Positions 16,064-16,690 of a stretch of 25,587 nucleotides of DNA are shown here, piece by piece. A model generated the notes under the pieces. That model ran no database searches, was not told the origin of the DNA, and saw nothing but the letters and a program-made list of their open reading frames with translations. Position numbers and translations under genes: made by a program. This stretch comes from a virus (lineage: Duplodnaviria > Heunggongvirae > Uroviricota > Caudoviricetes). Each line of letters starts with the position of its first letter. Within the stretch, counting starts at the first letter, position 1. The stretch is taken from positions 1-25,587 of IMG/VR virus record IMGVR_UViG_2537561620_000017, one strand, 5' to 3'.

Positions 16064-16392
16064 ATGAACTACACTATCGAATACTACAGTGAAGAGGTCC
16101 GACTGGAGGTCGATCAGCTTCCATTGAGTATGCGTGCCAGATACCAGCATCTTGTTGAACGCATGAAGGTATACGGCAGCAATCTCGGAGAACCTCACAC
16201 CAGCGCCTTTGGTGACGGGCTTTTCGAACTCAGAATTAAAGGCAACGATGGGATCGCGCGTGTTTTTACTGCACTCTGACAGGGAAACGCATCATCATGC
16301 TGCATAGTTTTGTAAAGAAAACGCAGAAAACACCGCCAGCCGAACGCAAGAAAGCTGAAACCAGAATGAAGGAGGTTAAGCATGACTGGTAA
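16064..16392 (+). pseudogene. HigB/RelE-superfamily toxin (HI1419 / Gp49-like), frameshifted
   Basis: MNYTIEYYSEEVRLEVDQLPLSMRARYQHLVERMKVYGSNLGEPHTSAFGDGLFELRIKGNDGIARVF then stop; the conserved C-terminus (YCTLTGKRIIMLHSFVKKTQKTPPAERKKAETRMKEVKHDW) continues in the -1 frame. The break is at a T5 run (16263-16267); one extra T would restore a protein of about 110 aa. Confidence 0.7.
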
Positions 16393-16690
16393 ACGCACTC
16401 TCCCCACCATGACACACGACGAAATGGCAGCCAAATGGATGGAAGACCCGGCTTTTAAAGCAGAATACGACGCTATCGCTGACGAATTCGCACTGCTTGA
16501 TGAAATGCTGGCAGCACGCAAAGAAGCTGGCTTAACTCAGGCTGAAGTTGCCGAGCGAATGGGAACAAAAGCGACCGCGATCACCAGAATGGAAAGTAAT
16601 CTCGCATCAGGTATCAGCGGCCCATCATTTGCCACACTAAAAAAATTCGCCCGCGCTACTGGAAAAAAACTCCAGATCCGCTTCGTTTAA
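16382..16690 (+). CDS. HigA-like antitoxin (HI1420-type, HTH)
   Basis: 102-aa ORF with HTH (GLTQAEVAERMGTKATAITRMES); start overlaps the reconstructed toxin stop by 11 bp; typical toxin-then-antitoxin order for this pair. Confidence 0.7.
   Translation: MTGKRTLPTMTHDEMAAKWMEDPAFKAEYDAIADEFALLDEMLAARKEAGLTQAEVAERMGTKATAITRMESNLASGISGPSFATLKKFARATGKKLQIRFV

Follow-up and report, generated by a model that had tools for sequence, protein, structure and literature searches.

A Gp49/Tad-Ata-type toxin-antitoxin cassette in a decayed Shigella flexneri prophage, and the probable draft-assembly origin of its toxin frameshift

Does a frameshifted toxin gene next to an intact antitoxin gene record the inactivation of a toxin, or an error in the sequence? 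The question is raised by a locus in the window, the 25,587-nucleotide stretch of viral DNA analysed here (IMG/VR record IMGVR_UViG_2537561620_000017). An earlier note on this DNA described the locus as a HigB/HigA-like toxin-antitoxin (TA) pair of the HI1419/HI1420 type and proposed that its toxin is being inactivated, with a homopolymer error as the alternative. The locus is very probably an intact Gp49/Tad-Ata 'moron' (16036-16718, about 683 bp) situated within a prophage's early/nin region, in which the apparent frameshift is a homopolymer undercall of a draft assembly. The positions of the features discussed are collected in Table 1.

Table 1. Positions of the toxin-antitoxin cassette, its candidate control elements and neighbouring features in the window
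Feature	Position	Strand	Remarks
IS elements	3909-5157, 9255-11894, 20052-21265 and elsewhere		dense, typical of Shigella
IS66-family transposase ORF	10293-11894		abuts helicase gene
Replication module, DnaC-like + DnaB-like pair	11898-14056	-	
Ash + Rha ORF	15182-16198	-	338-374 aa as called; runs into 5' half of toxin gene
Candidate promoter/operator	16028-16063	+	from comparative alignment
-35-like TTG	16028-16030	+	
Palindrome ATAAC-N6-GTTAT	16038-16053		overlaps -10-like element
-10-like TATGTT	16051-16056		7 nt before toxin ATG
Toxin gene	16064-16392	+	Gp49 / Tad-like family, RelE/ParE superfamily; split as sequenced
Frame-breaking homopolymer	16263-16267	+	exactly T5
Antitoxin Shine-Dalgarno AAGGAGG	16370-16376	+	within 3' end of toxin gene; 5 nt before ATG 16382
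Antitoxin gene	16382-16690	+	102 aa; intact ORF
GC-rich hairpin	16698-16718		3' edge of cassette; folding -16.6 kcal/mol, z -3.1
ninE	16732-16908	-	Pfam NinE, E 4e-43
ninB	16905-17315	-	
Replicase (primase/helicase)	17665-19958	-	
Homopolymer with second deletion	18771-18775		A6>A5

Family and architecture of the gene pair

As sequenced, the toxin gene reads from its ATG at 16064 to a TGA at 16277-16279 and encodes 71 amino acids, of which 68 are native and the final three, TAL, are out of frame. The C-terminal part of the toxin, YCTLTGKRIIMLHSFVKKTQKTPPAERKKAETRMKEVKHDW, is encoded in the -1 frame by 41 codons that end with TAA at 16390-16392. The addition of one T to the T5 run (T6) restores a single toxin open reading frame of 109 amino acids. 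The frame break is thus a one-base deletion in the T5 run beside an intact antitoxin gene, as had been described. On the + strand, the toxin gene precedes the antitoxin gene, whose start it overlaps by 11 nt with its 3' end.

The profile search proposed in the earlier note for the two families matched both proteins. In the Pfam search, the repaired toxin matches PF05973 (Gp49) at positions 2-90 of 90, with a score of 91.4 bits (gathering cut-off 23.9 bits), and this is the sole Pfam toxin family that it matches at E <= 0.01. The 71-aa product as sequenced matches only positions 2-56 of the profile, with 39.3 bits. The antitoxin is composed of an N-terminal segment of about 40 residues and an XRE-type helix-turn-helix (HTH) at residues 44-98, which matches PF01381 (HTH_3). 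Both family assignments are confirmed far beyond chance (PF05973 E 3.8e-26; HTH_3 E 3.4e-11). Among phage protein families, the repaired toxin matches PHROG 2523 (E 5e-46), which is labelled 'unknown function', and the antitoxin matches PHROG 1373 (E 2e-37). The gp49 protein of phage N15, after which the family is named, and its partner gp48 share 46% identity with the repaired toxin (E 5e-27) and 38% identity with the antitoxin (E 2e-15), respectively. The best solved-structure matches of the two proteins are the two chains of one crystal complex, the HigB-HigA pair of Streptococcus pneumoniae: 6AF3_A (HigB) for the toxin (E 1.2e-5, phmmer against PDB) and 6AF3_B (HigA) for the antitoxin (E 1e-3). 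The earlier description of a Gp49-like toxin of the RelE/ParE superfamily followed by an XRE-HTH antitoxin is borne out by the PF05973, HTH_3, N15 and 6AF3 matches. Judged by sequence, the pair is a type II module of the Gp49/Tad-Ata type, similar to N15 gp49-gp48, within the RelE/ParE superfamily.

In the alignment with 6AF3_A, toxin residues E55, R57, F83 and K85 correspond to E66, R68, F90 and K92 of S. pneumoniae HigB. All four of these HigB residues have been targeted by mutation as putative members of the active site, and the four key residues include R68, F90 and K92 (PMC7984235). The equivalent of HigB R73 is ambiguous, as it falls in a gapped stretch of the alignment, and HigB D61 is aligned with Gly50 of the toxin.

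The canonical HigB profiles (PF05015 and PF09907, the families of Rts1, E. coli YgjN and V. cholerae HigB-1) do not match the toxin at Pfam E <= 0.01. Since GP49 toxins are also described as having little similarity to the well-studied HigB proteins (PMC5906591), 'HigB-like' is a loose name. Within the same RelE/ParE family, the HI1419/HI1420 type forms a subfamily, and assignment of the pair to it was rejected: the toxin reaches only 21.2 bits against TIGR02683 (E 2.8e-4; cut-off 62.85), and the antitoxin has no TIGR02684 match at E <= 0.01. V. cholerae HigB2 was also discarded as the closest relative; it belongs to PF06296, not PF05973 (PMC11980606), and is absent from the PDB matches.

The locus is a known kind of TA pair, of which intact homologues are already annotated publicly. 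The NCBI PGAP name for the intact toxin homologues is 'type II toxin-antitoxin system RelE/ParE family toxin'. Neither protein has a full-length match to the components of a defence system in PADLOC-DB. Toxin residues 49-99 match positions 233-283 of the 293 in the NsnC profile, at its C-terminal end (E 7.6e-10), and the other matches in that database are weak generic HTH matches only.

Cassette edges and prophage surroundings

Whatever the flanks, the homology of the locus to other genomes extends from 16036 to 16718, which defines a cassette of about 683 bp. Its mosaic edges are sharp, one lying 28 nt upstream of the toxin ATG and the other the same distance downstream of the antitoxin stop codon. 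In an alignment of six cassettes from different contexts, the TTG, both arms of the palindrome and the TATG of the -10-like element are invariant, whereas the spacer and the flanks are variable. Only through this comparative alignment did the palindrome and the -35/-10-like elements come to light; a consensus promoter/terminator scan and an inverted-repeat finder flagged nothing at the cassette. From the conserved elements we infer a weak promoter with an overlapping operator at 16028-16063. The toxin ATG is not preceded by a Shine-Dalgarno sequence, and the toxin message may be leaderless or nearly so. The AAGGAGG ahead of the antitoxin start presumably has a role in translational coupling or in antitoxin excess. 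No T tract follows the hairpin at the 3' edge, which was not flagged by the terminator scan.

The genes that converge on the pair, ninE, ninB and the primase/helicase genes, are on the - strand, in agreement with the previous statement that the pair is convergent to the replication operon; this operon is the replication/nin operon of the lambdoid prophage. In E. coli VL40 and S. flexneri, the cassette is located between ninE and Ant/Rha genes. In E. coli A34 its neighbours, upstream of the replication genes, are a DUF4222/KilA-N block on one side and an ash gene on the other. It is also found in Stx phage POCJ13 between the replication/Ren block and ninB, and in two further genomes (L004 and L008) beside rearranged terminase fragments. 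Stx phage 75/02 also carries it. In the contexts for which gene tables were read, the strand of the cassette is opposite to that of the adjoining early-operon genes; in L004 and L008, rearranged late-gene fragments on the 5' side of the cassette share its strand. Such an arrangement is typical of a phage 'moron' that is transcribed on its own. The presence of the cassette in Stx-converting phages makes it a reasonable, if unremarkable, candidate for phage-borne exclusion or stabilisation.

The cassette is uncommon in complete E. coli genomes, where it occurs in 31 of 5,426. The best match of the window among these genomes, a collection without Shigella, is 97.8% identical. In the assembly collection, 4,960 blocks list the exact antitoxin protein, and the chromosomes that were read for it are small and IS-rich, as in Shigella genomes. 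The prophage that carries the pair is a decayed lambdoid prophage of Shigella flexneri 3b K-1770/SFL1520.

On the 5' side of the toxin gene, a regulator gene encoding Ash and Rha diverges from the cassette, and its homologues are present in L005, L007 and L014-L020. As called, its reading frame runs into the toxin gene; however, the Ash domain begins only near 16000, and the overlap is therefore probably a start-codon artefact. In several assemblies with an intact T6 toxin, the gene caller took the Ash/Rha reading frame and dropped or shortened the toxin gene. Because intact toxins are lost from annotation alongside the antisense Ash/Rha call, TA surveys of Shigella prophages probably undercount the cassette.

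The replicase of the prophage, whose counterparts are at L007:6284-8566 and L006/L011:6042-8948, combines a Toprim primase and an AAA_25/DnaB-like helicase in one fusion protein, interrupted by an intein-like insert (Hom_end_hint and LAGLIDADG_3). The full-length protein has 968 residues in relatives; in the window, it is cut at its N terminus by an IS3-family insertion at about 20052-21265. The two replication modules that flank the TA cassette have the same orientation and differ in kind, one consisting of a DnaC-like and DnaB-like pair and the other of the primase/helicase. The homology of one phage group stops at about 16026-16030, and that of the cassette begins at 16036. The flanking modules together with these homology limits suggest a mosaic joint or two fused prophage remnants. 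Matching E. coli records annotate the IS3-family elements of the window as IS911 and IS600, and the IS66-family element as ISSfl3.

The T5 run and its alternatives

The window from 1898 to 23172 is 100% identical over 21,275 nt to a contig of the S. flexneri K-1770 draft (AKMX01000023.1), and the assembly that contains it, GCA_000268245.1, is that of strain K-1770 (PMC6397287). The same strain has been sequenced again: SFL1520 (CP032513), 'also known as strain K-1770', was assembled from MinION and MiSeq reads (PMC6424224). Over the 21,275 nt, CP032513.1 and the window differ by one SNP and two single-base homopolymer deletions in the window, T6>T5 in the toxin gene and A6>A5 at 18771-18775. 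The SNP, at 10865, is inside the IS66 element (T versus C within a C run) and may reflect repeat collapse. The deletions affect two of the 22 six-base runs present in the compared region. The A6>A5 change is a deletion relative to the hybrid assembly of the same strain and to all lineage-mates, and it splits the primase/helicase reading frame on the - strand into pieces of 425 and 339 amino acids. Selection for inactivation is not expected at this position, because the primase/helicase gene is already truncated by an IS element.

The T run has six bases in all 18 other assemblies examined, and none has T5. The carriers of T6 are L001-L011, L013, L014-L020 and VL40; T5 is found only in the window's own record (L012). 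The nearest E. coli relative, VL40, is otherwise identical to the window over 16175-16700, and all ten loci with the exact antitoxin have T6. Two assemblies, L007 and L010, are identical to the window over 15900-16900 except for the T-run base. Further afield, the window differs from them by the A6>A5 deletion and a few substitutions, one of which is the lineage-specific D105N in its DnaB-like helicase. An exact-protein look-up of this helicase allele retrieved the window's record and its lineage-mates. The seven further assemblies with D105N (L014-L020) all have T6; L014 and L015 differ from the window by the two deletions only, and L016-L020 otherwise by one to three substitutions. Six of the seven (L015-L020) were built from separate public sequencing runs. 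The toxin-inactivating lesion is thus reproduced neither in CP032513 nor in the seven lineage-mates, and the toxin is annotated as intact in each of the 31 complete E. coli genomes that have a relative.

The most economical reading, held with high confidence, is that T5 is a homopolymer undercall in the 2012 K-1770 draft assembly. A homopolymer error is favoured because the re-sequenced strain and the other assemblies examined have T6, and the second one-base deletion, with the same signature, supports the model of an error in the draft. The earlier view that the toxin is being inactivated is not sustained, since the same strain has an intact T6 toxin gene and T5 is confined to the draft; the homopolymer error offered as its alternative is the version that agrees with the relatives. 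A discrepancy of a single homopolymer base in an old draft can mimic toxin decay, and here the apparent decay is resolved by a later hybrid assembly of the same strain. Exact products corresponding to the 71-aa toxin and the 421-aa frameshifted primase fragment are not on record in the assembly collection, which is uninformative because the gene caller of that collection missed the truncated toxin even in the source contig. A separate comparison of L010 (CP066809.1) with 11677-21693 of the window revealed five homopolymer differences of 1-2 bases, at 11702, 20632, 21239 and 21477-21478, that are not shared by L007. Homopolymer errors are therefore common in assemblies of this region and not specific to the window's record.

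If T5 were real, it would be a private toxin-inactivating frameshift in the 2012 K-1770 culture, leaving an orphan antitoxin or repressor and a 71-aa fragment that should be inactive, because it lacks two core strands, F83/K85 and the C-terminal helix. Such a mutation would be in keeping with the clear decay of the prophage, visible in its IS insertions and truncated genes, and with the intact antitoxin; toxin-null mutations are common once a TA module is no longer needed, and homopolymers are genuine hot spots of indels. However, the re-sequenced strain has T6 (PMC6424224), T5 recurs in none of the other assemblies, and the only other difference in 21 kb beyond the SNP is a one-base deletion in a 6-mer homopolymer of a dead gene. 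The second deletion is therefore a signature of base calling and not of selection, and T5 is unlikely to be a real mutation. A broader form of the same idea, in which the cassette is a mobile self-promoted moron for abortive infection, superinfection exclusion or addiction, with a leaderless toxin message and a palindromic operator, and the K-1770 T5 is a genuine escape mutation, has a similarly low probability, although the intact cassette could have a role in defence. It is scarcely credible that the T run is a site of recoding or phase variation, from which the toxin would be produced at a tunable dosage by -1 slippage of tRNA-Phe or by transcriptional slippage. A -1 slip of tRNA-Phe on GU-U-UUU-A would give the reading ...RVF-YCTL... 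and restore the native protein, but the sequence does not have the form of an X XXY YYZ heptamer, T5 is present in one assembly only, and all homologues examined have T6 and a toxin encoded in a single frame. At 5-6 nt, the run is, moreover, shorter than those in which appreciable phase variation or slippage of RNA polymerase usually occurs.

The pair might be a phage regulatory device and not a growth-arresting TA module, in which an HTH factor and a degenerate, non-toxic partner of the Gp49 fold would control early genes. Its neighbours in several phages are regulators (Ash/Rha, Ant, Cro/CI), PHROG 2523 has no assigned function, and HigB2 and HigB3 of Mycobacterium tuberculosis, which belong to the same Pfam family (Gp49), are not toxic (PMC9098466). 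In contrast, N15 gp49/gp48, which among characterised systems is the closest relative, is named in PMC5906591 (citing Dziewit et al. 2007) as a stabilising TA module that has been validated. The toxin conserves the residues that align with E66, R68, F90 and K92 of S. pneumoniae HigB, and the toxin-first architecture, the overlap of the genes and the strong Shine-Dalgarno sequence of the antitoxin are typical of TA modules. A purely regulatory role is accordingly regarded as very improbable.

Proposed working and comparison with known systems

By analogy with characterised members of the family, the intact Gp49/Tad-Ata cassette is expected to work as follows. The 109-aa toxin would be a ribosome-dependent mRNA endonuclease with an active site on a RelE-like beta-sheet and a long C-terminal helix, the equivalent of which is predicted at residues of about 90-109. 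The antitoxin would bind and neutralise the toxin, probably through its N-terminal segment, and, as a dimer, repress the operon through its C-terminal HTH at the palindrome that overlaps the -10-like element. Translation of the toxin, weak and possibly leaderless, set against the strong Shine-Dalgarno sequence of the antitoxin, would result in an excess of antitoxin. Loss of the labile antitoxin would free the mRNA-cleaving toxin and cause growth arrest, which could stabilise the prophage or abort superinfection.

This outline draws on several relatives. Toxins of PF05973 are described as ribosome-dependent and mRNA-degrading, with a toxin-first gene order (PMC11980606, Table 1), and this order is the rule for GP49 toxins (PMC5906591, PMC11980606). 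The M. tuberculosis HigB-TAC toxin acts on the ribosome, where it cuts A-site codons, and depends on its C-terminal helix, a long helix of the kind that is typical of Gp49-like toxins (PMC9098466). The GP49-type HigB2 of Acinetobacter baumannii is an RNase, its promoter is repressed by the antitoxin and by the complex, and the HigBA2 module stabilises plasmids (PMC5906591).

Of the systems compared, S. pneumoniae HigB-HigA (6AF3/6AF4) resembles the pair in the long C-terminal helix region of the toxin and in the HTH antitoxin, but the sequence identity is low, the match spans toxin residues 28-106 only, and the host and genetic context are different. N15 gp49/gp48 and the Tad-Ata module on plasmid pAMI2 from Paracoccus aminophilus share with it the combination of a PF05973 toxin and an XRE-HTH antitoxin, the position of the toxin gene ahead of an overlapping or abutting antitoxin gene, and the C-terminal placement of the XRE HTH. 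The N15 module is likewise carried by a temperate phage. However, the N15 prophage is a linear plasmid, which its module serves to stabilise, whereas the present cassette belongs to integrated lambdoid prophages and Stx phages, where it lies in the nin/early region, and its toxin has an N-terminal extension of 14 residues that is outside the N15 alignment. HigB-TAC (Rv1955) of M. tuberculosis and HigBA2 of A. baumannii are members of the toxin's own Pfam family (PMC11980606, PMC5906591), and neither protein was matched directly by the toxin with phmmer against PDB. HigB-TAC requires a SecB-like chaperone, whereas none is encoded here. With their toxin-first operons, ribosome-dependent or RNase activity and promoter repression by the antitoxin or complex, HigB-TAC and HigBA2 would nevertheless provide a model for this pair.
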